This document shows, one piece after another, positions 1,747 through 55,221 of a stretch of 64,000 nt of DNA. Made by a program: the position numbers and the translations under genes. The stretch's first letter is position 1. Every line of letters begins with the position of its first letter. This DNA is from an uncultured bacterium (GTDB taxonomy: Bacteria > Patescibacteriota > Doudnabacteria > UBA920). Under the pieces are notes generated by a model. The model worked only from the letters and a program-made list of their open reading frames with translations. It had not been told where the DNA came from and did no database searches. The stretch covers positions 43,913-107,912 of the forward strand of contig CAVVMJ010000010.1 in assembly GCA_963749445.1 (NCBI GenBank). Direction: 5' to 3'.

Positions 1747-4700
1747 TTATCTTCCAACCAATTTCAGAAGCGTTTTGCGCTTTTTTACCACCGCGAACGC
1801 GCCGACCATCAATCCGGCAAAAACAAAAGCGTTGGTATCCGCGCCGGTCTTGGGGGCCACAAGCGCTCCCAAAACCTGCGGCGTGTTGATGTTAATCGTT
1901 ATCGCGTTGCCGTAAGTGTTGGTCATAACGTAATGCAGATTGCTGGCCAAAAAGTACTTAATGCGCACGCGGAACGATTTGCTCACGCTGCCGCCGGCCG
2001 ACACAGTAATGGGCGGATAGTTGATGACATTGCCGGAAAGCGTGCCGCCGCCGTTGTCACTGATGTCCGCGTAAGGCAGAACCTGGGACAAATCATCCGT
2101 GACCACAAAGTTGGTGGCCGGCGAATTGCCGTTATTGGTTACCGTCAAAGTGTAAGTAATATAGTCTTCTTTGGAAGCCGGCTGTGTGGTAGCGTCAACA
2201 TTTTTGGTATCGTTCCAGGCTTTTTTGGCGTATATCAAATTAACATTGCCGCCGAGCACGTTGCCGTTGCCGTTAACGAAGACCCACGCGTCATCCTGCA
2301 CATTCGGCACGCTGTCGCCGCGGGCGCTGGCCGTGTTTTCAATGCTGGTGCCGCTGCCGGCCACAACCTGGGCCTGGAAAGTCGCGGTAACGCTCTGACC
2401 CGTGGAAAGCGAGCCCAAATTCAGGCTGTTGCCATACCAGTTGCTGCCGGAATTATAACCGTTGTTGTAATTATTATTGTTGTAATAACCGCCGCTGACC
2501 TGCGTGCTGCCGGAAATCCATTGCAGGCCGCTTACGCCCGCGTCGGTCAAAACCACATTATTGACGCTGGCGTTGCCCGTGTTGGTCACGGTAATTTGGA
2601 ACTGTACGGTATCATTCACGTTGGCGCTTACGGTTTTTTGGAACGAGCCGCCCGCCGTAATATTCCTGACCATTTTTTGGATGCCCAACTGCACGTACTG
2701 GTTATACGGTACCGGGTTATTATAGTAGTAAGGATTACTGTTGGACGACGCGTAGTAATAATAGGTGTTGGTCGTATTAGTTACGTTGTGGGAATCCGTA
2801 GTATTGGTTGTGGTATTGGTTACATTGTGGGAGTCTGTGGTATTCGTAATGTTATGCGAATCGGTGCTGTAATTTATATTATGCGAATCCGAGGTGTTGA
2901 TAATATTATTGCAGGAATTGTTTATGCAGGTATTGATGTTGTTTGTATTGCCGCCGTTGTTGTTATTTGAAGCCTGCAAAGTTATGGCGATAGTAGAAAG
3001 CAGCTGGTTGCAGCTTGCATCATACATCTTAAATACATAACTGCCGCCGGCCTGCAAATCGGAAACCGTTTGCTGGCCGTTGGCACCGCCGCTGGCAAAA
3101 GCCAGTTCCGCGGAAGAGCCGGGGTTGATGCGGGTTATGCGGATTTGGTTGGTGCCCGATGAAGCCCAGCTTATGGTTGAGCTGTAAGCGCTCCCGTTAA
3201 TCAGCAAAGCAGGCGCGGAATAGTTTAAGGTTGCGCCGGTATTGGAGGTACAAACCTGCGGCTGCTGCGAGACATGGACGCTGCAGTTAGCAGATTGGCT
3301 GCCGCTGGTCACGGTTACTGTTTTGGTGCCGATTGAAGTGTAAGTGACTCCGCTGAGCGTATTGCCCAAGGCCGTGCCGTAATTGGCGCCGGGATCGGAC
3401 CAGTTATAACTGCCGTTGCCGCCGGTAGCGGTAAAGTTTACGGCTTGATTGGTTTGGACGCTGGTCGGGTTGGCAAAGCAGGTTAAAGTTTGCGGCTGCT
3501 GGATGACGATGTTAACAACCGGACAACTCACGCCGTTGACTGTGGTTATGCCGCTGGTTACGCCGGCATTAAAGCGGGTAAGAAAAGTCGTGCCCTGGCC
3601 GGCAAACGGCACGGCGCTTTGCGCCGACCAAGTGTAGGTCTGGCTGGAAACAGGGTTGCTAATAGCGTAAGAGACCTGGTCAGACGGCGCATTGCTGCTG
3701 CCGTTTACTGTGGAAGGGGAAGTTAACTGGCAAATCGGCTGATTATTAACAGGAGCAGAACATTTAGCCGAAGCCTGGGCGCTGGCATTGGCCTGGGCCT
3801 GAGCCTGGGCTTGCTGCTGGGCCTGGCTTTGCGCCTTGTTTTGCGCGTCGGCTTGGCTGACGTTGCTGGTGGCTGTGGCGCTGGCCGAAGCCGAGGCCGA
3901 AGCCGAGGCAAACGAGCCGTCAGGGCAGGAAGCGCTGGCCGAAGCCGTGGCGCTGGCCGTGGCAGTTGCCGTAAACGTTCCGGGCTGAACCTGGATATTA
4001 ATAGTCACTATCGGACAGCTCACACCGTTAACGGTAACCGTTCCGGTAGATACACCGGCGTTAAAGCGGGTAAGAAAAGTCGTACCCTGGCCGGCAAACG
4101 GCACGGCGCTTTGCGCCGACCAAGTGTAGGTCTGGCTGGAAACAGGGTTGCTAATAGCGTAAGAGACCTGGTCAGACGGCGCATTGCTGCTGCCGTTTAC
4201 TGTGGAAGGGGAAGTCAACTGGCAAATCGGCTGATTAGCCGGAGCCTGGTTAACCAAAACCGAACAATTGGCGCGCTGGCCGTCAATGCTGCTGACGCTG
4301 GCGGTCTGCGTGCCAACGACACTGTAGTTAACGGTATAACTGGTATAATCCGCCGAAGCGTTCGCCGAAGAAGCGTTGCTGGTAGACCAGCCATAAGCGC
4401 GGCTGGTATCGCCGCCACTGGCGGTAAATACAACCGGTTGACCAAGAGTAATCGAGGCAACGTTGGCGCTGCAGGTTAAAGTCGGAAACTGAGTAGGAGT
4501 GCTACCGCAGCTCAAACTCGGCACAGGCACGTATTTATCAATTTGCGGATAACCATCCGCGGTTAAATAGAAATGTACGGTTTTACCGGGAGTCAACCAC
4601 GGGGCGTCTTGTCCTCCGAAGGGGCTGTTGGCAGCCGCTGCAAATAAACTAGGCTGGCCGGTGGAAGTATTAACTACATAGACTTTAACATTGTTTAAAT

Positions 4701-6642
4701 TGGAAGATGTCCAAGTCACGGTGCCGTCATACAAACATTGATTATAAAGCTGGTTGCCTACCTGGACGTTCAAAGTGGCACTACCGGCCGGAGGAGTGGG
4801 CGTACTGCCGCAGCTCAAAGCGGGCACAGGGACATACTTGTCGATTTGCGGATAATTATCGGCAGTCAAGTAAAAATGGACGCTGGTGCCCGGGGTCAAC
4901 CACGGCGCATCCTGGCTGCCACTTACAGCCGCGGCAAACAAACTCGGCTGGCCGGTTGAAGTATTAACCACGTAAACTTTAACATTGTTTAAATTAGAGG
5001 AAGACCAGGTGACAGTGCCATCATATAAACACTGGTTAGCAACCTGGCTGTTAACCTGAACATTTAACGTAGCGGTGCCGGCCGGAGGAGTGGGCGTACT
5101 GCCGCAGCTCAAAGCGGGCACATTGACGTATTTATCAATTTGCGGATAGTTGTCCGCGGTTAAGTAAAAGTGGACAGACGTGCCCGGAGTAAGCCACGGA
5201 GCATCGGAATTCCCCGAAACGGCGGCGCCGACTAAGCTGGGCTGGCCGGTGGAAGTGTTAACCACGTAGACTTTAACATTGTTTAAATTGGAAGATATCC
5301 AAGTCACGGTGCCGTCATATAAACACTGACCGGAAACCTGTCCGTTAAGATTAACATCCAAAGTAGCTGTGCCGGCCGGAGGGGTAGGCGTACTGCCGCA
5401 GCTCAAAGCAGGCACGCTGACATACTTGTCAATTTGCGGGTAACCATCCGCAGTTAAGTAGAAATGGGTGCTGGTGCCGGGAGTGAGCCACGGCGCATCC
5501 TGGCTGCCACTTACAGCCGCGGCAAACAAACTCGGCTGGCCGGTGGAAGTGTTAACCGCGTAAATTTTAACATTATTTAAATTAGAGGAAGACCATGTGA
5601 CAGTACCATCACCCAAACACTGGCCACTAACCTGGCCGTTGTAGCTTACATCCAAAGTGGCGGTGCCGGCCGGAGGAGTAGGCGTACTGCCGCAGCTCAA
5701 AGCAGGCACGCTGACATACTTGTCAATCTGCGGATAACCATCGGCGGTTAAATAAAAATGGGTGGATGTGCCGGGAGTGAGCCACGGGACATCTGCGTTG
5801 CCGCTTGTAGCGGCGCCAACCAAACCAGGCTGGCCGGTGGAAGTGTTAACCGCGTAAACTTTTACATTATCTAAACCTGAAGAAGTCCATGTTACAGTAC
5901 CATCGCCCAAACACTGGCCACTAACCTGGCCGTTATAGCTTACGTCCAAAGTGGCGGTGCCGGCCGGAGGGGTGGGCTGGGTTTGGCCGGTAACGGTAAC
6001 GGTAAAATAAATCAGTCTGATATAACCAAAACACGCCGGCTGGTCAGGCAAAGAAGCCGAAGAGTTTACAAAATTCAAGCTGCCCTGCCCAATGGGATCC
6101 ATATTCGGATCGCCGGTTCTCGCGCGCCATTGCTGGCCGCTGGCCGAAAGCGTTGTGCCGGAAAGCGTATTAATGTACATCTGGCCGTTTAAGGAATTGG
6201 AAGTGTTGTTAGCCGTAACCGAGGCGGAAATCATGTGACTGTCCGATGTGTTACTGTCAACCGTGGCGCTGACCTGTTCGCCGGTAGCCGCGGGGCCGCC
6301 CACGACCGCGCCGTTGTGCACATATAAAACAAATTCCACCTGGTCGCCGGGCTGGGCGCTAATCATATTATTTTCCGTATCGCCCTGCCAATCGCCGACA
6401 GCTTGCCCGTTGCGCACAATCTGGGCGCGCATAAACGGGGCGTCATTACAGCCGCCGCCGGTATGGGAAATTGAGTAAGGATTTAAAATCGGCGTGCTAA
6501 AAGTCGGGGTGCAGTCGGTTTCCGCGTGCAAAGAATTAATAACCCGCGGAGCCGCGGCCAAAACCGTCAAAGATACCGCAAAAAAACTCACCGCTAAAAC
6601 TGCGCCGACCTTGAAATTTAAAACCTGAGTATATTTTTTCAT
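1747..6642 (-). CDS. giant secreted tandem-repeat cell-surface protein (1631 aa) with sortase-type sorting signal
   Basis: N-terminal signal peptide with hydrophobic core. Five 98-aa (294-nt) tandem repeats. A duplicated roughly 90-aa module, Ser/Ala and Asn/Thr low-complexity tracts, and DUF11-like TVTNNGN segments. C-terminus APKTGAD, then a hydrophobic stretch, then KKRK. Confidence 0.75.
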   Translation of the reverse strand: MKKYTQVLNFKVGAVLAVSFFAVSLTVLAAAPRVINSLHAETDCTPTFSTPILNPYSISHTGGGCNDAPFMRAQIVRNGQAVGDWQGDTENNMISAQPGDQVEFVLYVHNGAVVGGPAATGEQVSATVDSNTSDSHMISASVTANNTSNSLNGQMYINTLSGTTLSASGQQWRARTGDPNMDPIGQGSLNFVNSSASLPDQPACFGYIRLIYFTVTVTGQTQPTPPAGTATLDVSYNGQVSGQCLGDGTVTWTSSGLDNVKVYAVNTSTGQPGLVGAATSGNADVPWLTPGTSTHFYLTADGYPQIDKYVSVPALSCGSTPTPPAGTATLDVSYNGQVSGQCLGDGTVTWSSSNLNNVKIYAVNTSTGQPSLFAAAVSGSQDAPWLTPGTSTHFYLTADGYPQIDKYVSVPALSCGSTPTPPAGTATLDVNLNGQVSGQCLYDGTVTWISSNLNNVKVYVVNTSTGQPSLVGAAVSGNSDAPWLTPGTSVHFYLTADNYPQIDKYVNVPALSCGSTPTPPAGTATLNVQVNSQVANQCLYDGTVTWSSSNLNNVKVYVVNTSTGQPSLFAAAVSGSQDAPWLTPGTSVHFYLTADNYPQIDKYVPVPALSCGSTPTPPAGSATLNVQVGNQLYNQCLYDGTVTWTSSNLNNVKVYVVNTSTGQPSLFAAAANSPFGGQDAPWLTPGKTVHFYLTADGYPQIDKYVPVPSLSCGSTPTQFPTLTCSANVASITLGQPVVFTASGGDTSRAYGWSTSNASSANASADYTSYTVNYSVVGTQTASVSSIDGQRANCSVLVNQAPANQPICQLTSPSTVNGSSNAPSDQVSYAISNPVSSQTYTWSAQSAVPFAGQGTTFLTRFNAGVSTGTVTVNGVSCPIVTINIQVQPGTFTATATASATASASASCPDGSFASASASASASATATSNVSQADAQNKAQSQAQQQAQAQAQANASAQASAKCSAPVNNQPICQLTSPSTVNGSSNAPSDQVSYAISNPVSSQTYTWSAQSAVPFAGQGTTFLTRFNAGVTSGITTVNGVSCPVVNIVIQQPQTLTCFANPTSVQTNQAVNFTATGGNGSYNWSDPGANYGTALGNTLSGVTYTSIGTKTVTVTSGSQSANCSVHVSQQPQVCTSNTGATLNYSAPALLINGSAYSSTISWASSGTNQIRITRINPGSSAELAFASGGANGQQTVSDLQAGGSYVFKMYDASCNQLLSTIAITLQASNNNNGGNTNNINTCINNSCNNIINTSDSHNINYSTDSHNITNTTDSHNVTNTTTNTTDSHNVTNTTNTYYYYASSNSNPYYYNNPVPYNQYVQLGIQKMVRNITAGGSFQKTVSANVNDTVQFQITVTNTGNASVNNVVLTDAGVSGLQWISGSTQVSGGYYNNNNYNNGYNSGSNWYGNSLNLGSLSTGQSVTATFQAQVVAGSGTSIENTASARGDSVPNVQDDAWVFVNGNGNVLGGNVNLIYAKKAWNDTKNVDATTQPASKEDYITYTLTVTNNGNSPATNFVVTDDLSQVLPYADISDNGGGTLSGNVINYPPITVSAGGSVSKSFRVRIKYFLASNLHYVMTNTYGNAITININTPQVLGALVAPKTGADTNAFVFAGLMVGAFAVVKKRKTLLKLVGR
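3470..4235 (-). repeat. duplicated roughly 270-nt module (two copies about 490 nt apart) flanking a Ser/Ala/Gln low-complexity tract
   Basis: aagt(t/c)aactggcaaatcggctgatt at about 3721 and 4212. The protein segment APANQPICQLTSPSTVNGSSNAPSDQVSYAISNPVSSQTYTWSAQSAVPFAGQGTTFLTRFNAGV occurs twice. Confidence 0.8.
4497..6003 (-). repeat. five tandem 294-nt (98-aa) repeats inside the surface protein gene
   Basis: Near-identical DNA blocks starting at about 4500, 4801, 5097, 5391 and 5688 (cgtactgccgcagctcaaagc...). The protein repeats begin TPTPPAGTATL and end PALSCGS. Confidence 0.85.
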
Positions 6643-8679: not shown

Positions 8680-8721
8680 TAATGATTGACTTTTTGACGG
8701 CCGTCAAAAAGTCAATCATTA
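8680..8721. repeat. perfect 21-bp-arm palindrome between the sortase gene and the downstream gene
   Basis: TAATGATTGACTTTTTGACGG|CCGTCAAAAAGTCAATCATTA with no loop. Confidence 0.7.
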
Positions 8722-8740
8722 CTAAAATATTTTAAATTTA

Positions 8741-10378: not shown

Positions 10379-11518
10379 ATGCTATCAAAATCCCCATCTG
10401 AACAAACTTTAACAGCCAGGCGCAAGCCACTGCCGACCCACGGCTTTTTACTGATTTTACTGATAATCTTTGTTGCCTTCAAGCTTGTATTGGCACTGGC
10501 GCTACCGCAAAGCGCGGTTTTTGCCTCTGACCTTACCATAGACAACATCCTTTCGGCTGTAAATAGCCAACGGAGCCAGCGCAACCTTGTTACGCTCAAC
10601 ACGGACAGCCGCTTAAGCAGCGCCGCGCAAAGCAAAGCCGACGATATGCAGGCGCGACACTATTTCGCGCACGTTGATCCGGACGGCAATTATATTTGGC
10701 CAAAAATCGTGGCCGCCGGTTACACGCCTTATTTGGAACTCGGGGAAAACTTGGCCATTGAATTTTACGATACAGATAGTTTGATATCCGCCTGGATGAA
10801 CAGCCCAACGCACCGCGCCAACATTTTAAACGACGGTTTCCAGGACCAGGGCATGGGTCTGGACTTTGGCGACGCTAATAGCGGCCAATACCATTCGGTG
10901 GTGGCCAATACCTTTGGAACGCTGCTGTTGGCAAAAAAAGTAGAGGCCGCACCTCAGACGACCAAGTTTACCCCGACTACAGCGTCGGGGCCGGCCGTGT
11001 CCGGCGCCAGCGAAAAAACCCCGACGCAAACGGCTCCAAAAAATACTGCCCAACCCAAACCCAAGGCCCCGCCTACCGCCCCGCCCGCTGCCGCCCAACC
11101 GGAGCCAGAGGCAACTTCGGCTCCAGCCACAACCACGGCACAAAATAATCCCGCCCCTGCTCCGGAACCTGTTGCTAATCCGGTTAATCCCCGCGGCGAT
11201 TATGCCATGGGCCTGAGCCCAAGCCAACCCGAAGCCAGTACGGCCCAAGCGCAAACTTCCCAACCGGTTTCGTCATCTTCACCCCCCGCCCTGACCACGG
11301 CGCCGGCCATAGTGAACACCGAATCCCAAAACCCGCTGGCAAACTTCCAAACCAACCGCTATTTTACGTTGGCCTTTGGCATCGTCTTATTTTTATTTTT
11401 ACTCACCGACCTGCGCGGCATAATGAAACAAAAATCCGAACTCGTCGGCAAAAAAATCAACAACCTGACGCTCCTGTTTTTGGCTTTGGTCGTGATTGCG
11501 ATGATGTACTGGCTGTAA
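10379..11518 (+). CDS. CAP/SCP/PR1-like domain protein (YkwD-like) with Pro/Ala/Thr-rich linker and C-terminal membrane anchor
   Basis: HYFAHVDPDG ... WMNSPTHRANIL motifs typical of the CAP superfamily. N-terminal TM/signal segment and C-terminal TM. Confidence 0.7.
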   Translation: MLSKSPSEQTLTARRKPLPTHGFLLILLIIFVAFKLVLALALPQSAVFASDLTIDNILSAVNSQRSQRNLVTLNTDSRLSSAAQSKADDMQARHYFAHVDPDGNYIWPKIVAAGYTPYLELGENLAIEFYDTDSLISAWMNSPTHRANILNDGFQDQGMGLDFGDANSGQYHSVVANTFGTLLLAKKVEAAPQTTKFTPTTASGPAVSGASEKTPTQTAPKNTAQPKPKAPPTAPPAAAQPEPEATSAPATTTAQNNPAPAPEPVANPVNPRGDYAMGLSPSQPEASTAQAQTSQPVSSSSPPALTTAPAIVNTESQNPLANFQTNRYFTLAFGIVLFLFLLTDLRGIMKQKSELVGKKINNLTLLFLALVVIAMMYWL

Positions 11519-11576
11519 TGACCAATAAAAAAATTGAAAGATTGAAAATTGAAAGATTATGGGACTTTACGAATCC

Positions 11577-12564
11577 TTAAATCTTTAAATCATTCAATCT
11601 CTCAATTGGACTTATCATCGCATAATTGCACCCGTCCAGAATCCGCGCGCGGAAGTTGGTTACGGAAATCACCATGGCCGCAACCAAAACACTAATCAAT
11701 AAAATCTCAATAAAACTTTGGCGGGTCAAAGCGCCGTCCAGCCGATAATGGAACACGCCCCAGAACAGGTTGTAAGCCGCGGTCATAAAAATAGCGCCTG
11801 TAAAATAATTGTAGCCCCAGCGCACGTACACCAATTGGCCGATTATGGCCATTAATACGGCAATAATCAGCGCCGAAGCGATAGTGTAAAAATTCACCCG
11901 GCGGTGCTGGTAAAGCGCCTGGTAAATCAACAGAAAAGTAAAACACAACACTTCAACGCTGAAATACCAGGCCGGCAGGCAATTATAGCGGAGCCAGGAC
12001 AAAGCGGCCGCGTAAAGTACGCCGACCGCGTAAATTTTGACCACGGTTAAAACCACAAAAATGTCGCGGTCCACGATTTCCCTGCGCCGGTAAAAAATTT
12101 CCTTTAAGTACCAATAATAAAGTAATTAGCGCCGCGGATGACAAAAGCAGGACGGTCTGCTGGATTTTGACAAAACCGAAATTGACGTAAAACAGGGACA
12201 CCGTGGCCCAAAAAATAAATCCGGGCAAAAGCAAAAAATGCAGCCATTGCCGAACGTATGACCAGCGGCGCAGGTGCTCAAAGCGATCCCAAAAAGCGGA
12301 AAAAATTATTTGCCCGTTGCGGTGCAACCTGGAAATTGTGTTTTGGTGCTTGCGTTTGGCCCGCTGCCAGCTGCCGCGCTTTTTAAAATGCAAATCAAAG
12401 AAAAAAACAATATTAAAAATCAAGTATACAAATATCCAAAAAGCCACATTCAAATAAGTGGCCGGCTGGTTAAGATTTAAAATGTAAACCAGCGCTTCAA
12501 AACCACCCAGCACGGCCAGGGCGATGACAAAAAGGGCAACGGTTTTTTGGGTTTTTTGGGTCAT
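11577..12564 (-). CDS. polytopic membrane protein, apparently one gene split by a frameshift near 12075-12125
   Basis: ORFs 11983..12564 and 11577..12074 are both multi-TM. The frame of the downstream ORF stays open upstream as LLYYWYLKEIFYRRREIV, while the upstream ORF tail becomes nonsense. Confidence 0.4.
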
Positions 12565-19482: not shown

Positions 19483-19528
19483 GAAGTAAGAGTCAAGGAA
19501 CTTAATTCTTAACTCTTGATTCTTGCCT

Positions 19529-20110: not shown

Positions 20111-20951
20111 TTTGGTTTTATTGATCAGTTATATATAAGCAATGTAGCGTGCCGATTCATCGGCGTCCGAAAACCGCCCATAAATGGGCACGCTACACTT
20201 ATTCATTATATAAAACATTTGTCAAAAAGACAAAAAAAGCTCTCTGCCAGATCAGAGAGCAACGGTACCCGGAAGCCCGCGTGCGGCCCCGGGATTTTTC
20301 TACGATACGCAACCGTTCAAAAACAAACGGCTGGTTCCCGCGGCAGATGCTGGCAACCGCGAAAAATTCATAATTGCGGCCCGGAGCTTTCGCCCCGGAC
20401 TGTGCCCCATGTGGGGCTCCTTCTCCTTGGTATTGTATACCCGCTTGCCAGTTCAGGCGGGGTGATGCAAAAGGGCAGAAGCCCCAACTACGCCCAAAAT
20501 ATCACCGATATTACTGGTTGGGCCTGCCTGATCAAACGCTCCCGGAGCTAAATGGAGTTAAAAAATATCAGGGCAGAAGCGCCTGCAGTCCTCGGCCGTC
20601 AACCGAGTCCTTTGGCGATTTTTTGCCCCTATTTCGTCCAAACCATCAGGGGCCAATGGATTGCACGTTGGGCTATCGGCTCAGCAGGTTGACGGACATC
20701 GTCGCACTCATAGACGAAACTCCCTTCTTCATGTGTTCCAATTGTTTTTCCGCAGGCCTTTTTCCTGCGGCGATTGGTTTAACCAGATATTACTCTCTCT
20801 CTCTGTTTTTGTCAACATTTTTGCCATTTTTACAATTTTGTTGTAAAATACTTTTATCATTGATTTTTAACAGCCCTACCGACTGTTTATCGGACGAGGG
20901 CTATCCTCAGAGGCCGATAAATCGGCAAACTACACTGGGGTGAAAGCAAAT

Positions 20952-26774: not shown

Positions 26775-26866
26775 ACAATAGTATTTCTATTTTATTTCCA
26801 CTTATTTCTATCGTATTCCATCACAAAAAGAAATACAGTTGAAATATAGTCGATATAAAATTGAAA

Positions 26867-30620: not shown

Positions 30621-31663
30621 TGGTTTAATGGTAAATTCTAGTGCTTGAAACCGGCTAAAACTTCCTCGATTAACCGCCAGCGCCTGTCGCGTTTCAGACC
30701 GCTATGGATGCCAATCAGTTGTTTAAGATATTTAAAACTGCCGTCTAAAGAATTCGTAGTATTGGGAATATTTAAACCGGTATATCGTTGGTAAGTAAAC
30801 AGGTAAGGCGCGTTGGTTTTCAAACTCCGATAAGCAGACCTAATTCGCTTGTGGGTGTAAAACCACTTTTTAGGATTAAAGGGATTAACGGTTCGTTCTT
30901 TTAAAAAGTCTCCCCATTTTTCATGCCAGGCATCCAGCAACAACAGCAACATGTTTTCAGTTAATTCAGTTAAAGCCAAGGCAATCATCCGCAGTTCTTT
31001 TCCCGCTTCCAGCTTCGGCCGTTTGGTCAAATACCTGGTAACGATGGCCATTTGGTGGAACTGGCAGACTTGTACCGGAATGTCGGAAAACACTTCTCTG
31101 ACGCCCTTTTTACCGTCTAAGACCACTGCTTCAAAGGTGTAGCCCAATTCTTCCAGCAGTTGTCTGGCTTCCCGATACACATCAGCCGTTTCAGTTTTAA
31201 CCTCCGTCCAGTACAGGTTCTGTTTAAGGTCAAAGGATCTAAAAACCAACACCCCGTAACCCCGACCCCAGAATGTGCAATCAGCGATGGCAACTACAGG
31301 TTGCGGATAAAGGCGAAATGACTTTGTAGGAGCTTTATCCAGCTGCTGCCGAATCCACTTTTCACTCCGCTGATATTTTTTAACCAGCTGCTTAACTGTT
31401 TGTTTGCCCCAGATGTATTGCCGCCAGAGGGCGCGTTGAAGTTTCTGTTTACGCCGTTTATTCTCAAAATTCTTTCCGCAATTCTTGCACTGGTAACGCT
31501 GGAGCCCTAACTGTTTCCCTTTCTTAATAATTGCCGAAGAACGGCATCTTGGGCACTTTTTTTACAAGCCATACATAATCAAAGTTAATTATTTATCTTA
31601 AGTATGGCACAAACGCCGAAATCTAAGCACTAATATTTACCATTAAGCCAAATGTGTTAACAT
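30621..31663 (-). mobile_element. IS1595-family (ISXO2-like) insertion sequence next to tRNA-Glu
   Basis: Imperfect terminal inverted repeats TTAATGGTAAATTCTAGTGCTT (30626-30647) and, on the other strand, TTAATGGTAAATATTAGTGCTT (31636-31657). One transposase gene inside. Confidence 0.7.
30638..31572 (-). CDS. IS1595-family transposase (N-terminal zinc ribbon plus DDE domain), frameshifted in a homopolymer at 31557-31563
   Basis: With one extra A the N-terminus reads MACKKKCPRCRSSAIIKKGKQLGLQRYQCKNCGKNF (the Zn_Tnp_IS1595 pattern) and continues into the 204-aa DDE ORF. As sequenced there is no ATG in that frame. Confidence 0.7.
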
Positions 31664-32128: not shown

Positions 32129-32368
32129 ATACCCGCGGCCAAAGCACACCCCTGAATTCGTTGTTCACGATTAGCGGAACGCCGCGCAAACTTTGCACGC
32201 GCGCGGAAATTTCACTCACCGGGCATCGGTGGGCGCGGTTTGATCCGCAGGAGCAATGCGCGCATAAGCCGGAAAGTTGGCTCACAATGTTCAATTTTTG
32301 CTTTTCAAGTTCGCTCATAAATTAGTGAGTAGTTAGTAGCGGGTAGTCAGTAGCCAAACAGAATGTGC

Positions 32369-32722
32369 TCAATTTTTGTTTTGAATAAGCTTGTTAAGCA
32401 TTTTCATAACCTCCTCAAGCAAGCTGTCAACTTTTGAAAAATCCAAGCCTTTGCCGAAAGGCAATCTTTTTGCTATTTCTATTTGGGTTTCCAATTCGGC
32501 TCCGGAAGCAAAAGCAATCGACAAAAAATGATAAAACTCATTATCCCCGAATCTACGCCTGCCCTCGGCAATATTTGACGGAATAGAAACTGAGCAACGG
32601 CGAGACTGCGAAACTAAACCATACAACTCATTCGGTGGATATCTTTCCGTAAGCTTATATACTTCAACGACTAAATCCATTGACTTGCGCCAAACAATTA
32701 AATTTTTGTAATCCGCGTACAT
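32369..32722 (-). CDS. four-helix-bundle protein (TIGR02436; 23S rRNA intervening-sequence protein family)
   Basis: SIPSNIAEGRRRF...EFYHFLSIAFASGAELETQIEIAKRL signature. Confidence 0.75.
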   Translation of the reverse strand: MYADYKNLIVWRKSMDLVVEVYKLTERYPPNELYGLVSQSRRCSVSIPSNIAEGRRRFGDNEFYHFLSIAFASGAELETQIEIAKRLPFGKGLDFSKVDSLLEEVMKMLNKLIQNKN

Positions 32723-32765
32723 ACTTCGTCATACTGGCTACTTACTACTAACTACCATCTACTTA

Positions 32766-33380
32766 CTACTCAAGGTTTCTAATGACTCCAACCACCTTCC
32801 CCTGCACGCTCCATTCTTCCTTGGGATAAATGTTCTTATAGTCCGGATTCTCGGCTTTTAAGTAGGCGCGGTTTTTTACGTAGACCAGCCGTTTAACCGT
32901 GGCTTCGTCGTGCAGCAGCGCCACCACGATTTCGTTATTTTTGGCTTCCTTGGTCGGCCGCACGATTACCAAATCGCCCTCAAAAATTCCGGCGTTTATC
33001 ATGCTGCCTCCGCGCACCTTAAGCAAGAACACATCGCGCCGGCCTTTAATTAAGCTGGAAGGCAAATTAATCCATTCTTCAATTTGCTCTTCGGCCAAAG
33101 TCGGCACGCCGGCCTGGATGGCGCCCAGTAAAGGCACTCTGATTAGCCCTTTTTGCAAACTTTCGCCCAAAGTCTTTAGCACTTCAATGCCGCGCGCCTT
33201 GCCGGAAATCCTGATAAAACCTTCGCTTTCCAAAGCGTTCAGCAATTTAGCCACCCCGTTTTTGGATTTGACCTTAAGGTAAGTGGCCATTTCCGAAATG
33301 GACGGCGGCAAATTGTATTCCCGCACCTGCTTAATGATGAATTGGAGCAGTTCTTTTTGGCGCTGTGTGATTTTGTCCAT
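32766..33380 (-). CDS. lexA: LexA repressor
   Basis: N-terminal winged HTH; cleavage site region AIQAG (Ala-Gly); S24 catalytic Ser in GGSMINAGI and Lys in TVKRL. Confidence 0.85.
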   Translation of the reverse strand: MDKITQRQKELLQFIIKQVREYNLPPSISEMATYLKVKSKNGVAKLLNALESEGFIRISGKARGIEVLKTLGESLQKGLIRVPLLGAIQAGVPTLAEEQIEEWINLPSSLIKGRRDVFLLKVRGGSMINAGIFEGDLVIVRPTKEAKNNEIVVALLHDEATVKRLVYVKNRAYLKAENPDYKNIYPKEEWSVQGKVVGVIRNLE

Positions 33381-33490
33381 AGGTTTAAAATTAATGATAT
33401 TTAAATAGTATACCTTCGTTCACCGTCAGTCAACAGCATTAAAATACCGGCCTTTCGTCTGCCCGATTAAAGTTATCCACAAGCAATTAT

Positions 33491-33578
33491 AGCTAATAGC
33501 GCTTAGCGTTTAGCGATTAGCCTAACAAAAACCAGCCCTTTATGGCTGGCTAAACGCTAAATGCTAAACGCTAAATGC
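33491..33578. repeat. large imperfect palindrome built from TAGCGTTTAGC units around a central hairpin
   Basis: AGCGCTTAGCGTTTAGCGATTAGCC ... CCAGCCctttaTGGCTGG ... CTAAACGCTAAATGCTAAACGCTAAATGCT. Confidence 0.7.
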
Positions 33579-33815
33579 TCATTTCGTATTCAGCAAAAAC
33601 TTAATAAACTCCACCACCCCCTGCCAAATATTCTGCAGCATTGGCACCGATGTCGGCAGTAAAATCAGCAGGGCAATAATAAAAATAAAATCCTTTTTTA
33701 CCACCTTAAAAATGGAGTAGACCAAAAATATGGCCAAGGCGATGGAAATGACCGGCCGCGTGTTGACCGGAAAGTTGGCAAGAAACTGCAGGTAAAGGGA
33801 CTGAATTTGGTCCAT
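33579..33815 (-). CDS. small membrane protein (hypothetical) immediately upstream of lexA
   Basis: Start chosen at MDQIQSLYLQ. The longer track ORF translates the upstream repeat array. Two TM segments. Confidence 0.4.
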   Translation of the reverse strand: MDQIQSLYLQFLANFPVNTRPVISIALAIFLVYSIFKVVKKDFIFIIALLILLPTSVPMLQNIWQGVVEFIKFLLNTK

Positions 33816-33820
33816 AGAAT

Positions 33821-33920
33821 AATTGACAAGATTTAAAAGATTTAAATGATTGACAAGATTTTCAACTGGCAATCTTGCTCAATCATGTCAATCTTGTCAA
33901 TCTTGTCAATCTTGTCAATA
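33821..33920. promoter_or_regulatory. array of about six ATTGACAAGAT motifs (two forward, four reverse at 9-bp spacing) upstream of the small membrane gene
   Basis: AATTGACAAGATTT at 33821 and 33850. ATCTTGTCAAT at 33888, 33897 and 33906, with a partial fourth reverse copy ending near 33918. Each contains a TTGACA hexamer. Confidence 0.5.
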
Positions 33921-33951
33921 ATATTATAGCACAAACAAGCCGGATGTAAAG

Positions 33952-34560
33952 TTAATGCTTACCTTTACCCAGCGTGTCGCAAACCACGATGTGCGGGTAA
34001 TCAAAAATGTCCTTGATAAACTTGTCAAAAGTGTCGCGCCGGAGTTCAAACTCCGGCTGGGTCATTAAGCTGTAGTTGATGTCCTGGCTCATCATTTTTT
34101 CCACGGCTTTCAAAAAATCCGCCAGTTTCCTTAAGTTGATCCGGCCGACCAAAAGCAAATCAACCGGTAAGTTCGGCTGGCCGCAGAACAGGCCGCTTAA
34201 AAAGGCCGCCTTAATCTCCCCTAAATTCTTCAGCGCGGCAAACAGCTCGTCTTTGTAGGCCGGAACTCGGCCCAGACGGCGCTTGAGGTCAGGCAGAAGC
34301 GGATGACGAAGATTAACCAAAAAATATTTCTTGCCGCGCTTGCTGAAACTTTTAAGCAGGCCGGCCTCTGCCAGCTTATTTAAACTCACAGCGGCCTGCG
34401 CGTGGCTGAATCCCAGACGCCGGGCGATTTCGTGAATGGAAAAAGCCCTCGGCGGGGCGGCCAGAAAAAAACTCAAAGCCGGGCTTTCGGTTTTGGAATC
34501 AATGATGGTTTCCAGCATATGGTTGGAATTATAACACAGGCGCGGGGTATTTTGAAACAA
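33952..34560 (-). CDS. winged-HTH transcriptional regulator-like protein with uncharacterised C-terminal domain
   Basis: HEIARRLGFSHAQAAVSLNKLAEAGLL HTH-like segment. Confidence 0.35.
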   Translation of the reverse strand: MFQNTPRLCYNSNHMLETIIDSKTESPALSFFLAAPPRAFSIHEIARRLGFSHAQAAVSLNKLAEAGLLKSFSKRGKKYFLVNLRHPLLPDLKRRLGRVPAYKDELFAALKNLGEIKAAFLSGLFCGQPNLPVDLLLVGRINLRKLADFLKAVEKMMSQDINYSLMTQPEFELRRDTFDKFIKDIFDYPHIVVCDTLGKGKH

Positions 34561-39149: not shown

Positions 39150-39238
39150 AATATTAGTTGATTTCTGAATTCCGGATTGCGGATTGCGGATTAATCCGTA
39201 ATGCGTAATTCGTAATTCGTAATAAATTAATTAATAAT

Positions 39239-39757: not shown

Positions 39758-39900
39758 AATTTATTAGTAGTTAGCAGATAGTATTTAGCAGTTAGGGCTA
39801 GATCGACCTCGTAGCCGATAAATATCCTTTTAATAAAAAGACTCGGGCTTACCCGAGTGAATAAGTGTAGTGTGCACATTTATGGGCAACTAATGATGGC
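39758..39900 (-). promoter_or_regulatory. rplJ 5' leader (candidate L10-leader autoregulatory structure)
   Basis: A 140-nt untranslated region with hairpin potential (GGGCTTACCCGAG..) upstream of rplJ. Call is by position only. Confidence 0.3.
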
Positions 39901-39911
39901 CGATAAATCGG

Positions 39912-40040
39912 CGCACTACATTTTCCTCGGTGGGTTTACCCGCCTAAATTTTGCGCTTGTCTTTAGGGTTTGATAAATAACGAAATAATTTTGTTATCGA
40001 TCAAATTTCCAACTAATTGGGCAAAATTTTGGCGGGTGAA
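39912..40040. repeat. MITE-like repeat family F4, second element
   Basis: TTTACCCGCCTAAATTTTGCGC ... AATTGGGCAAAATTTTGGCGGGTGAA flanking an 85-nt core. Confidence 0.7.
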
Positions 40041-50138: not shown

Positions 50139-50268
50139 CCCGCTGATTATAGCAAAATTAAACAGAAAAATCTATGTCTTATATAACGTGCGGCCGCACG
50201 TTATATAAGACTAATAAAAAAACCCACTGCCACACGGCGACGTATGGCAGTAGGAAAACCCAAGCTTT

Positions 50269-51788: not shown

Positions 51789-51818
51789 ATCTTGATGTTA
51801 GTTGTTAATCGTAAATTG

Positions 51819-52784
51819 TTAATTGTTTCCGCCAAAGGCGGATCCGCCTCCGGCGGAAATTGTGGATACCGCCGTGCTCGTGCCCAAAACTGTCTGACCC
51901 GAATTCAGCCACGCCAGGGCTTTGGCCTCTTGCGCCAGGCCGGCCAGAAGTTTAGTTTCCGCAAACGCCGTGTACAAATGCTGTTCGCCCAAAACCACAA
52001 TGGCCAGTTCCTGGCCGCCGGAGTAAACCAGCGAAGCAAAATTGTAACCGGATTGATCAAGGTAGCCGGTTTTGGCGCCGATGATCTGAACATCGCCGTC
52101 CGACAGCAGCTTGTCAGTATTCTTAATAGTCTGATTATAGCGGGGATTGTTGGTGGAGCGCAACGCGTAAGATTGCAGCACCGCAATGTTGGCCAAATAA
52201 GAATTTTCAAACGCGGCTTTGACAATAGCGGCGTAATCGGCCGCGGTAATGGTGTTGCCGGGATCCATACCCGTGGGTTCGTTAAAATGGGTTTGCGTGG
52301 CTCCCAAAACAGCCGCTTTTTCGTTCATGCGCGCTGCAAATTCTTCGGCAGACAAACCGGTGCTGCGTGCCAAAGCCGCGGCCGCGTTATTGGCCGAAGG
52401 CATCAACGCGGCGTGGAATAAGCCGTCCACCGTAAATTTGACGCCGGGCTTAACTTTAATACAAGCGCCGCCGCTGCTGCATCCGCCCGCGACTTGGTCG
52501 GCTGCGGTCATGGCCACGGTTTTTTTAAGGTTCGGGTTGGTATCCAAAACCACTAAAGCCGTGACCAGCTTGGTCAGACTGGCCGGCACCCAAGGTTCGC
52601 CGGAATTTTTGTTGACCAACACCTGGCCGCTTTGCGCGTCAACCACCACGTAACTCTGCGCGTTAAACCCGGCCATGTCCGCCAGCTCGTTAATGCTGGT
52701 CGGCAGCTGCAAGGCCAAGGTGAAAGTTGGAAACGTTAACAGTAAAACCGCAACTCCTGCAATTATTTTCGTTTTTTTGATCAT
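51819..52784 (-). CDS. D-alanyl-D-alanine carboxypeptidase (S11, PBP5-like)
   Basis: Signal peptide; SLTK (SxxK), SAN (SxN) and KTG motifs in order. Confidence 0.8.
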   Translation of the reverse strand: MIKKTKIIAGVAVLLLTFPTFTLALQLPTSINELADMAGFNAQSYVVVDAQSGQVLVNKNSGEPWVPASLTKLVTALVVLDTNPNLKKTVAMTAADQVAGGCSSGGACIKVKPGVKFTVDGLFHAALMPSANNAAAALARSTGLSAEEFAARMNEKAAVLGATQTHFNEPTGMDPGNTITAADYAAIVKAAFENSYLANIAVLQSYALRSTNNPRYNQTIKNTDKLLSDGDVQIIGAKTGYLDQSGYNFASLVYSGGQELAIVVLGEQHLYTAFAETKLLAGLAQEAKALAWLNSGQTVLGTSTAVSTISAGGGSAFGGNN

Positions 52785-52851
52785 TATTTTGTATTAAGAA
52801 GTACGGCAACTTTCTCCCTTAACTCTTAACTCCTAATTCTTAACTCTTGTC

Positions 52852-53154
52852 TTACTCTTTCATCATATTGCCGAACTTGCTTTGCAGCATTTTTTTATGA
52901 TGCTTAAACAAATCCTCCAGGGCCGAGCGAATGTGCCGCGCGATTTCGCTTTTGTCGCCGGCAATGTCCGGGCTGACTTCCACGCTTTTAACGTTTTGGT
53001 TGCCGTCAATGATTAAAACGATTTTGCCGCCGGACGATTTGCCGCTCACGGTTTCCACTGCCAACAGGCTTTCCATCTGCTTGGCCTGCTTGCGCATTTC
53101 GTTAATATCCTTTAACTTGTCAAAAATTCCCATAAAATAATTTTTTAATGACAA
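52852..53154 (-). CDS. ybaB: nucleoid-associated protein YbaB/EbfC
   Basis: 100 aa; central SSGGKIVLIIDGNQNVKSVEVSP pattern. Confidence 0.8.
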   Translation of the reverse strand: MSLKNYFMGIFDKLKDINEMRKQAKQMESLLAVETVSGKSSGGKIVLIIDGNQNVKSVEVSPDIAGDKSEIARHIRSALEDLFKHHKKMLQSKFGNMMKE

Positions 53155-55078: not shown

Positions 55079-55139
55079 ACTTTTATTATAGCTTGTCCAC
55101 CCCGGAACCCCGGACTCCGATCCGGGGTATCCGGGGTCC

Positions 55140-55213
55140 AGGTAAAAGCCTATATCTGGATCCCGGATATTTTTTGCGGCTTATAATAATCGTCAACGCA
55201 AAAAATTCCGGGA
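55140..55213 (-). repeat. hairpin repeat family F2, copy 3 (inverted orientation)
   Basis: Reverse complement reads CCATCCCGGAATTTTTTGCG ttgacgattattataagc CGCAAAAAATATCCGGGATCC. Confidence 0.8.
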
Positions 55214-55221
55214 TGGAACCT

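Follow-up and report, generated by a model that had tools for sequence, protein, structure and literature searches.

An array of short repeats, each with the −35-like hexamer TTGACA at its core, lies immediately upstream of a gene for a 78-aa membrane protein in a 64,000-nt stretch of DNA from an uncultured member of the Doudnabacteria (contig CAVVMJ010000010.1, positions 43,913 to 107,912; the whole stretch is called the window below). The question raised by this locus is whether the array is a set of binding sites, a promoter or something else. On the minus strand, the array is preceded by a gene for a 188-aa winged helix-turn-helix (wHTH) protein and followed by the 78-aa protein gene, a heptamer-repeat palindrome with a GC hairpin and T-run, lexA and a 23S_rRNA_IVP-type gene. 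An earlier note on this DNA, made from the letters of the window, had proposed iterated sites for a regulator or a tunable promoter and a toxic small protein transcribed together with lexA. We compared the window with sequence loci of its relatives and of other carriers of the repeats, which are given L-numbers here. The comparison leads us to conclude, with moderate confidence, that the array represents one copy of an interspersed element that evolves fast and is quasi-palindromic in build, similar to REP sequences or miniature inverted-repeat transposable elements (MITEs), that acts, if at all, on the mRNA.

The repeats form an imperfect palindrome built from 9-bp units

The 11-mer ATTGACAAGAT is found exactly five times at the locus, at 33822 and 33849 on the plus strand and at 33891, 33900 and 33909 on the minus strand. 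A copy with one mismatch, ATTGACATGAT, is at 33882 on the minus strand, and no further exact copies were detected outside 33822-33919 in the 64 kb. When up to two mismatches were allowed, there were 35 matches in the window versus 16.1 ± 3.8 in shuffled sequences. When the window was scanned for runs of three units with 19 or more of the 27 positions matching, the array was the sole locus returned, with 0.15 hits in shuffles. The array of two forward and four reverse copies upstream of the small gene that had been described earlier is thus real, non-random and unusual.

TRF detected a 9-bp array at 33870-33919 (5.4 copies, 92% matches, score 84) and a second 9-bp array at 33828-33861. The reverse copies are spaced by 9 bp. 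Between the two forward copies, which lie at a distance of 27 bp, are the degenerate units ATTTAAAAG and ATTTAAATG, so that both halves, and with them the whole 98 bp, are in 9-bp register. The halves are mutually inverted and make up an imperfect palindrome with arms that are 78-88% complementary (78% for arms of 55 nt). We refer to the half next to the promoter as the A arm and to the half next to the start codon as the B arm (coordinates in Table 1). On the mRNA, the B arm, which is the best-conserved block in the family alignment described below, reads ATCTTGTCA ATCATTTAA ATCTTTTAA ATCTTGTCAAT. The −35 hexamers that had been read on the coding strand are indeed present as consecutive perfect copies in the distal A arm; the proximal arm reads TTGTCA in the sense direction.

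An Rfam search of the window returned three tRNAs only, with no match at or above the gathering score for the 98-bp element. The reading frame through the array is open (NLV...), and translation of the array as an N-terminal extension of the small protein was considered. This was rejected, given that the homologues begin at the annotated methionine.

Colinear copies of the element lie upstream of unrelated genes

One genome per species (185,579 species) was scanned for two exact 11-mers within 30 nt. The scan gave 89 stretches, 13 of which came from seven metagenome-assembled genomes (MAGs). Five of these MAGs carry the label Candidatus Doudnabacteria and two the label Candidatus Saccharibacteria, and the pattern is on at most four contigs per MAG (three to four in JARLHZ01 and CAZAED01). 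A tblastn comparison of window ORFs with the Doudnabacteria loci yielded a single weak match to a paralogue, uninformative as to taxonomy. The elements are ~75-130 bp long and consist of 9-bp units of two types, ATTGACAAG and ATTTAAAAG. An alignment of seven loci (the window, L012, L089, L130, L115, L116 and L147; denoted A2) shows colinearity along the entire element, 42 invariant columns and a common order of variant units. Its consensus is ATTGACAAG-ATTTAAAAG-ATTTAAAWG-ATTGACAAG for the B arm and ..CTTG(C/G)TCA-ATCATGTCA-WTCTTGTCAAT for the A´ arm, and the most invariant block of the family is TTGACAAGATT. A profile derived from A2 detected strong copies in L012, L089, L147, L130, L115, L082, L116, L117 and L110 (E 1e-19 to 1e-26 for the aligned copies), as well as a single match in the window, at 33810-33902 (E 1.6e-22).

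The genes downstream of the copies, which come from Doudnabacteria-type MAGs and from related metagenome contigs, are unrelated. They encode S8 (rpsH, with S14 upstream in the S14-S8 operon), SSB (ssb), EF-P (efp), PGK (pgk), dUTPase (dut), PRPP synthetase (prs), a DNA polymerase III delta-type subunit (holB-like), an ABC ATPase and a MacB/FtsX permease. Since the adjacent gene can be on either side of the aligned element, both orientations occur. We also considered whether the constant orientation of the proximal arm reflects strand specificity. This was rejected, as the orientation is a trivial result of the palindrome and the whole element is found both ways round.

In 12 of 17 family copies, the final unit has ...AAT as its end and is separated from the ATG by exactly 6 nt, and CT occupies positions −2/−1 in 13 of the 15 ATG-adjacent copies versus 6 of 70 window genes. 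For the window, L115 and L012, the far end of the element is located 3-8 nt after a perfect TGnTATAAT, while the near end is N6, N6 and N9, respectively, from the ATG. Deletion of the element in silico restores TATAAT-N6-ATG in the window and L115 and TATAAT-N9-ATG in L012, as seen for array-free orthologues. The N9 case in L012 (...CCTACTACT-ATG) matches the array-free wHTH gene of the window itself (TGtTATAAT-TCCAACCAT-ATG), and L130 (CATAAT) and L082 (TGaAATAAT) show a similar geometry of −10 box and element. The constant 6-nt distance is most simply explained if the element inserted directly behind the −10 box of leaderless-type promoters.

Collectively, these data document a family of elements with colinear copies in both orientations, presence or absence at the small-gene site (see below) and a position between the −10 box and N6-ATG. 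Several features by which interspersed elements are recognized are observed: copies at unrelated loci, inverted ends with hairpin potential (the family consensus structure has 25 pairs), and both presence/absence and both orientations. The earlier note had named a generic repeat as the outcome that would speak against a regulatory array, and this is largely what was found, with the motif belonging to a dispersed family in related genomes. The family appears to be undescribed so far; no description of such elements was found in the literature on Candidate Phyla Radiation (CPR)/Patescibacteria and Doudnabacteria.

In L082 (5723-5830, a Doudnabacteria MAG), 12 perfect tandem ATTGACAAG units precede the MacB/FtsX permease gene versus ~4 in the opposite arm, indicating that the two arms can expand independently.

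The element is present in some strains and absent from others at the same site

At the small-gene site, the element is present in the window, L153, L154, L056 and L057 and absent in L059, L060 and L152. Most relatives do not have the 11-mer at the orthologous position, and it varies even among strains whose protein is 92-97% identical, which argues against the binding sites of a gene-specific regulator that the earlier note had suggested. Array-free relatives with an 83-88% identical protein have a leaderless-type TGnTATAAT, located 6 nt from the ATG in one and 25 nt in the other. The sequence in L060 (83% identical protein) is TGcTATAAT-AAAGTC-ATG, L059 and L152 have TGnTATAAT and short unstructured leaders, and TATAAT-N6-ATG precedes the small gene in L035, L032, L026, L016 and L021. 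Among more distant orthologues, many show TATAAT-N6-ATG or have no spacer at all. For L012 and L003, relatives at the same locus, the element is before the wHTH gene and not the small gene. As judged from these orthologues, the array-free promoter geometry is the ancestral state of the small gene.

Where the element is present, it changes quickly. L153 (94% identical protein) has kept TGgTATAAT-ATT, and both of its arms have changed together, such that GACATAAT pairs with ATTATGTC in a predicted leader hairpin of −30.7 kcal/mol (z −5.6). In the closest strains (L056, L057 and L058), the contigs break off within the array and carry further unit variants. In more distant relatives, the same spacer contains unrelated tandem-repeat hairpins (L150, L006, L009, L018, L023, L027 and L036).

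The element is predicted to be transcribed as a structured leader

The best sigma-70-type promoter at the locus, TTTACA-16-TGcTATAAT, begins 2 nt past the wHTH stop codon and ends 3 nt short of the first repeat unit. The orthologous TGnTATAAT is kept in L060, L059, L152, L153 and L154. Transcription is predicted to start near 33916, inside the first repeat unit. Given this start and the location of the element between TGnTATAAT and the ATG, the element would be transcribed as a ~100-nt leader. The predicted fold of this leader has a free energy of −37.7 kcal/mol (z −6.2), with the hairpin ending 6 nt before the AUG.

Leaderless-type transcription units seem to be common in the window, where a perfect TATAAT is found 6-9 nt from the ATG of at least six genes (starts 34518, 40892, 50138, 55078, 58458 and 61544), preceded by TGn at five of the six, and where a Shine-Dalgarno-like motif is found within 20 nt of the start for 8 of 70 putative genes. 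The promoter geometry suggests leaderless mRNAs for the TATAAT-N6-9-ATG genes. A gene-proximal GTCAAT was also considered as a mimic of a −10 box. It was rejected, as it lacks an A at position 2 and has no −35 sequence at the right distance.

We favor, as the probable explanation, the interspersed element introduced above. A copy would have arrived, in the recent ancestry of this strain, between the TGcTATAAT −10 box and the ATG of an originally leaderless small gene. Transcripts from the upstream promoter would then carry the element as their leader, which would fold into a long hairpin ending just before the AUG without a Shine-Dalgarno motif. The effect would be in cis on the mRNA, with the change from a leaderless to a structured leader altering translation or stability. 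REP, ERIC and Correia-type elements are known to alter the translation or stability of mRNAs. The TTGACA hexamers belong to the repeat unit itself and provide promoter-like matches but do not make up an operator array for LexA or a gene-specific regulator.

Several observations weigh against this explanation. There is one copy in the 64-kb window and the source genome is absent from the matches of the genome scan, so that the multi-copy status comes from relatives only. Most pairs of the family structure are invariant, with compensatory change in two only. No consistent target-site duplication was found; AAT/TATT (3-4 bp) is present at both ends in the window, with no equivalent in L012 and L115. 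No transposase was identified, though no search was aimed at one, and the open reading frame (ORF) at 30638-31252 has no Pfam match. Nor does the explanation account for the perfect −35 hexamer at the conserved core of the unit. L154 (92% identical protein) keeps a single arm, with the distal one mostly gone, and its leader forms no hairpin (−3.6 kcal/mol, z +0.5), and L122, L132 and L144 are also without an inverted arm, indicating that the hairpin is dispensable for the gene. Finally, both the transcription start and the effect of the hairpin are predictions. Across these sequences, the hairpin is retained in many cases, be it through selection or through template switching between the arms, yet it is not essential for the gene.

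A bolder version of this explanation, which we regard as distinctly unlikely, is that the element moves as a hairpin and inserts specifically where the open complex is single-stranded, just past the −10 hexamer of leaderless-type promoters, by a single-stranded DNA (HUH/RAYT-like) or template-switch mechanism. With every insertion, a leaderless mRNA would acquire a structured leader. Across a CPR genome, this would amount to a lineage-specific switch of genes between two modes of translation initiation, with the perfect −35 cores serving as back-up promoters.

Table 1. Features of the repeat element and its surroundings, and similar palindromes in distant phyla (window coordinates unless an L-number is given).
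Feature	Position (strand)	Description
Palindromic repeat element	33822-33919 (98 bp)	Quasi-palindrome from 9-bp units; colinear with copies elsewhere, profile match
B arm	33822-33859 (+)	ATTGACAAG, ATTTAAAAG, ATTTAAATG, ATTGACAAG(AT); start-codon-proximal
Palindrome centre/loop	33860-33873	TTTCAACTGGCAAT on plus strand
A arm	33874-33919 (−)	Minus strand (ATTGACAAG)x3, ATTGACATG, ATTGAGCAAG; promoter-proximal; consecutive TTGACA −35-like hexamers
Spacer from last unit to ATG	33816-33821 (−)	TATTCT on minus strand, 6 bases; without Shine-Dalgarno motif
Best sigma-70-type promoter	33923-33950 (−)	TTTACA (33950-33945), 16 nt, TGcTATAAT (TG 33931-33930, hexamer 33928-33923); 11/12 with TG
78-aa protein gene	33579-33815 (−)	Two hydrophobic segments; conserved; start 6 nt from array
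188-aa wHTH protein gene	33952-34518 (−)	Weak N-terminal MarR-type winged helix; own leaderless-type promoter TGtTATAAT-N9-ATG
Terminator-like heptamer-repeat palindrome	33497-33579 (−)	Encloses GC hairpin and T-run 33530-33551; between small gene and lexA
lexA promoter	33405-33433 (−)	TTGACT-17-TACTAT with conserved operator-like box GTGAACGAAGGTAT (33410-33423)
lexA	32766-33380 (−)	Downstream of small gene, same strand
TTGACA 9-mer palindromes, distant phyla	L080 2299-2425, L081 7749-7854, L078 3149-3243, L084 1172-1355, L123 5148-5288, L092 6380-6476, L135 5258-5389	Intergenic

Other explanations of the array

The fixed distance to the start codon could also reflect a translational signal, in which sense 9-mers (AUCUUGUCA) next to the AUG are bound by the ribosome or an RNA-binding protein, so as to drive or regulate initiation where there is no Shine-Dalgarno motif, and the distal arm has a masking role by pairing with them. 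The 12 of 17 copies ending 6 nt before the ATG, the CT at −2/−1 in 13 of 15 copies (6 of 70 window genes), the lack of a Shine-Dalgarno motif at the array together with the rarity of such motifs in the window, and the existence of copies with the proximal arm only (L122, L132, L144 and L154) are all consistent with such a signal, as is the diversity of the downstream genes, including one for a ribosomal protein, which recalls the TAACTGA repeats (PMC4679880). We nevertheless consider this unlikely, given that insertion at the −10 edge of TATAAT-N6-ATG promoters would give the same 6-nt distance, that the whole element is found in both orientations with either arm proximal, that the units differ between close strains and that there is no known binding factor. 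It is similarly unlikely that the array is a functionless and immobile local minisatellite or palindrome, generated by replication slippage and template switching, with the similar units elsewhere having arisen independently. The very fast turnover of units, copy number and arms among strains with a 92-97% identical protein would be expected for such a sequence, and unrelated tandem-repeat hairpins in the same spacer of other relatives, the many other 7-11-bp tandem arrays and long intergenic hairpins of the window, and the palindromic arrays of TTGACA-type 9-mers in distant phyla also fit. However, independent origin leaves the colinear two-arm structure unexplained, and an order of variant units (ATTTAAAAG-ATTTAAATG; GCTCA-CATGTCA) is common to unrelated genes in different genomes, with E values of 1e-19 to 1e-26.

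The promoter-like appearance of the units deserves separate mention. For a tandem or tunable promoter, each ATTGACAAG would be a perfect −35 with an extended −10 (TGn-CAAGAT/CATGAT) two units downstream, and copy number would tune the strength or start of transcription. On the coding strand, the array contains the match TTGACA-16-TGaCATGAT (33909-33882, 10/12 with TG), and there are eight promoter-like sites in 1.4 kb versus 2.8 ± 2.1 expected. In addition, TTGACAAGATT is the most invariant family block, the array in L112 is upstream of a TATAAT with the last unit in the −35 position, and the copies in L089 and L110 begin at the stop codon of the upstream gene, leaving no room for another promoter. 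The promoter-like potential of the element is real but secondary. As an explanation of the array as a whole, a tandem promoter is quite unlikely: the stronger canonical promoter (11/12 with TG) is immediately upstream and is ancestral, because it is kept in the array-free orthologues, the ATG-proximal arm reads TTGTCA in the sense direction, 12 such units point away from the gene in L082, and by inspection there is no consistent −10 partner across the family. We also find it very unlikely that the array is an operator on which the adjacent wHTH protein, or a global factor, polymerises on 9-bp units to block the upstream promoter. The array is directly downstream of the −10 box, the classic position for a roadblock, the wHTH gene is the immediate neighbour, and contiguous direct and inverted short repeats recall the operators of some ribbon-helix-helix repressors. 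On the other hand, 27 loci have a wHTH-small gene spacer of ≤30 nt without an array, the element is found at many genes that do not adjoin this wHTH gene, the unit sequence varies between close strains, and, with a 9-bp period, neighbouring sites would not share one face of the helix.

The sequence does not support a link between the small gene and lexA

The proximity of lexA, 199 bp downstream of the small gene on the same strand, is what speaks for the repeats as a LexA/SOS operator controlling an SOS-induced small membrane toxin co-transcribed with lexA. This possibility is already largely refuted, and we consider it extremely improbable. lexA has a promoter of its own, at which the box GTGAACGNNNGTATA overlaps the promoter spacer and −10 box. 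GTGAACGNNNGTAT is kept at the lexA promoters of the window, L056, L057, L060 and L150; the sequence in L152 (GTGGACG) differs from it by one base. GTGAACGNNNGTATA may be the LexA box of this lineage. The single exact match to the box in the 64-kb window is the one at lexA itself; none was found near the small gene, and the array 11-mer has no resemblance to it. The operon of the small gene and lexA assumed in the earlier note is not supported, given the terminator-like hairpin and separate lexA promoter between the two genes and the synteny that is interrupted by extra genes in L057, L059 and L150. The SOS-linked toxic protein suggested there is likewise not supported, given the absence of a LexA-type box nearby. 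SOS type I toxins are very small single-helix peptides with a narrow distribution, a LexA-controlled promoter and an antisense RNA, whereas the protein here is 78 aa long with two hydrophobic segments, is widely conserved and is almost always paired with the wHTH gene.

Two further elements were noted around lexA. A second palindrome, GTATACGAATGTATAC, is located at the lexA promoter of L150. A perfect DnaA box (TTATCCACA, 33472-33480), ~50-80 bp upstream of the lexA promoter, is kept in the window, L056, L057, L060 and L150 and hints at DnaA input to lexA.

The small membrane protein gene is paired with the wHTH gene

The 78-aa protein has 57 homologues, nearly all 77-80 aa in length (a few are called longer, up to 92 aa) and 50-100% identical, which establishes the ORF as a real gene. 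Fifteen residues are invariant in an alignment of 30 homologues, and no family was found in Pfam or NCBIfam. For the wHTH protein, Pfam and NCBIfam give weak HTH matches only. The wHTH gene adjoins the small gene upstream in ~48 of ~53 loci with enough upstream sequence, and the two are often 0-15 nt apart; in 27 loci the spacer is ≤30 nt, with no array. As far as gene order indicates, the conserved partner of the small gene is thus the upstream wHTH gene and not lexA.

The wHTH and 78-aa genes (L001-L055) make up a conserved two-gene module, and neither of the two proteins could be placed in a known family. Judged by eye, the wHTH protein has a C-terminal half that resembles a minimal nucleotidyltransferase (..PVDLLLVG..).

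Other repeats and structures

The window is overall unusually rich in intergenic structure. Tandem arrays with 7-11-bp units, whose sequences differ from the 9-mer, are found 7-33 nt upstream of minus strand start codons at 19501-19524, 26782-26817, 39169-39192, 39765-39795, 51796-51827 and 52818-52859, and some heptamer families recur: GTTAATY (40957, 51796), CTTTTAA (38254, 56466), TTAGCCC (19036, 37417) and CTTAACT (19501, 52818). A tendency to carry repeats shortly before start codons seems to be general in this genome. Inverted heptamer arrays (TAGTGAG-type and complement) at 32323-32353 and 32738-32770 bracket the gene for the four-helix-bundle 23S_rRNA_IVP protein (32369-32722); these arrays resemble the processing stem of an rRNA intervening sequence, but their setting here, downstream of lexA, is that of a protein gene. 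At 11529-11600, in the 188-bp gap after a plus strand ORF ending at 11518, there is a palindrome made up of 8-bp units (ATTGAAAG / CTTTAAAT). Its unit is approximately ATTGACAAG minus one base, and the A2 family profile gave no match there. Long, near-perfect intergenic palindromes or hairpins, with stems of at least 16-19 bp and in some cases a GGCC/GCGGCCGC centre, were also seen at 8680-8722, 50176-50211, 39860-39925, 20140-20200 and 55095-55215. Within a coding sequence, a 294-bp tandem repeat (4632-5977, 4.6 copies, 80% matches) is part of a 1631-aa ORF (1747-6642, minus strand) for a giant protein with repeated 98-aa modules.

Outside the lineage, palindromes of tandem TTGACA-containing 9-mers (such as GGTTGACAA... 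/ ...TTGTCAACC) were detected in Bacteroidota, Acidobacteriota, Chloroflexota and Planctomycetota MAGs (Table 1). They may be members of a broader class of palindromic elements made of tandem repeats, or may have converged on the −35 hexamer.

Implications and comparison with known systems

If the array is indeed a copy of an interspersed element, the tiny, tightly packed genomes of CPR/Patescibacteria would still harbour fast-evolving palindromic repeats, and these would occupy the most sensitive position of a gene, from the −10 box to the start codon of leaderless-type promoters. Such elements would offer a handle on transcription and translation initiation in uncultivated bacteria that have few Shine-Dalgarno motifs and many TGnTATAAT-N6-ATG genes, and, being variable between strains in copy number and unit sequence, would serve as a strain-level marker. 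They would also give a practical explanation for contig breaks in CPR assemblies. Independently of this, a false lead is removed, since the locus does not point to an SOS-controlled toxin or a LexA regulon.

Among known systems, the contiguous 7-11-bp direct and inverted units beside a promoter are reminiscent of the heptads bound by the omega repressor, the met-boxes of MetJ and the centromere repeats of ParR. Unlike in those arrays, the unit here lacks conservation at the locus, unrelated housekeeping genes carry the same element, and no cognate binding protein was identified. A small hydrophobic protein encoded near lexA with repeats upstream also recalls the SOS type I membrane toxins TisB and DinQ. 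In contrast to these, the protein here has two hydrophobic segments and wide conservation, is paired with a wHTH gene without a LexA-type box, and is encoded by a gene separated from lexA by a terminator-like hairpin and lexA's own promoter.

Heptamer direct repeats (TAACTGA) upstream of start codons, for which a translational role was proposed, have been described in Beggiatoaceae, Cyanobacteria and Bacteroidetes (MacGregor 2015, PMC4679880). As for the element described here, the short tandem units run towards the start codon and end a few nt before it with no ribosome-binding site, the downstream genes are of all kinds, including those for ribosomal proteins, and there are "split" sets with related units between exact ones (PMC4679880). 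The differences are that the unit here is a 9-mer (ATCTTGTCA / ATTGACAAG), that an inverted partner array giving a hairpin is usual here but was found for 1 of 170 TAACTGA sets (PMC4679880), and that the whole two-arm element is colinear between loci, as expected for a discrete dispersed element.

The closest likeness is to the REP/BIME/REPIN, ERIC, Correia/NEMIS and RUP/BOX elements, which are also ~100 bp, non-coding, imperfect palindromes with copies at unrelated intergenic sites, in both orientations and with strain-variable presence, and which are transcribed with neighbouring genes into long RNA hairpins, as predicted for the present element. BOX elements have variable numbers of internal tandem units, and some Correia elements carry promoter-like hexamers. 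Unlike REP-type or MITE-like elements, no consistent target-site duplication was found for the element described here, and, unlike REP-type repeats, no GTAG head or associated transposase was examined or found. The present element further differs from REP, ERIC, Correia and BOX sequences in its setting in a CPR lineage, in being made up wholly of 9-bp units with a perfect −35 hexamer core and in its location 5´ of genes. Its distance to the ATG is typically 6 nt, and three copies fill exactly the stretch from the −10 box to the start codon of a leaderless-type promoter.

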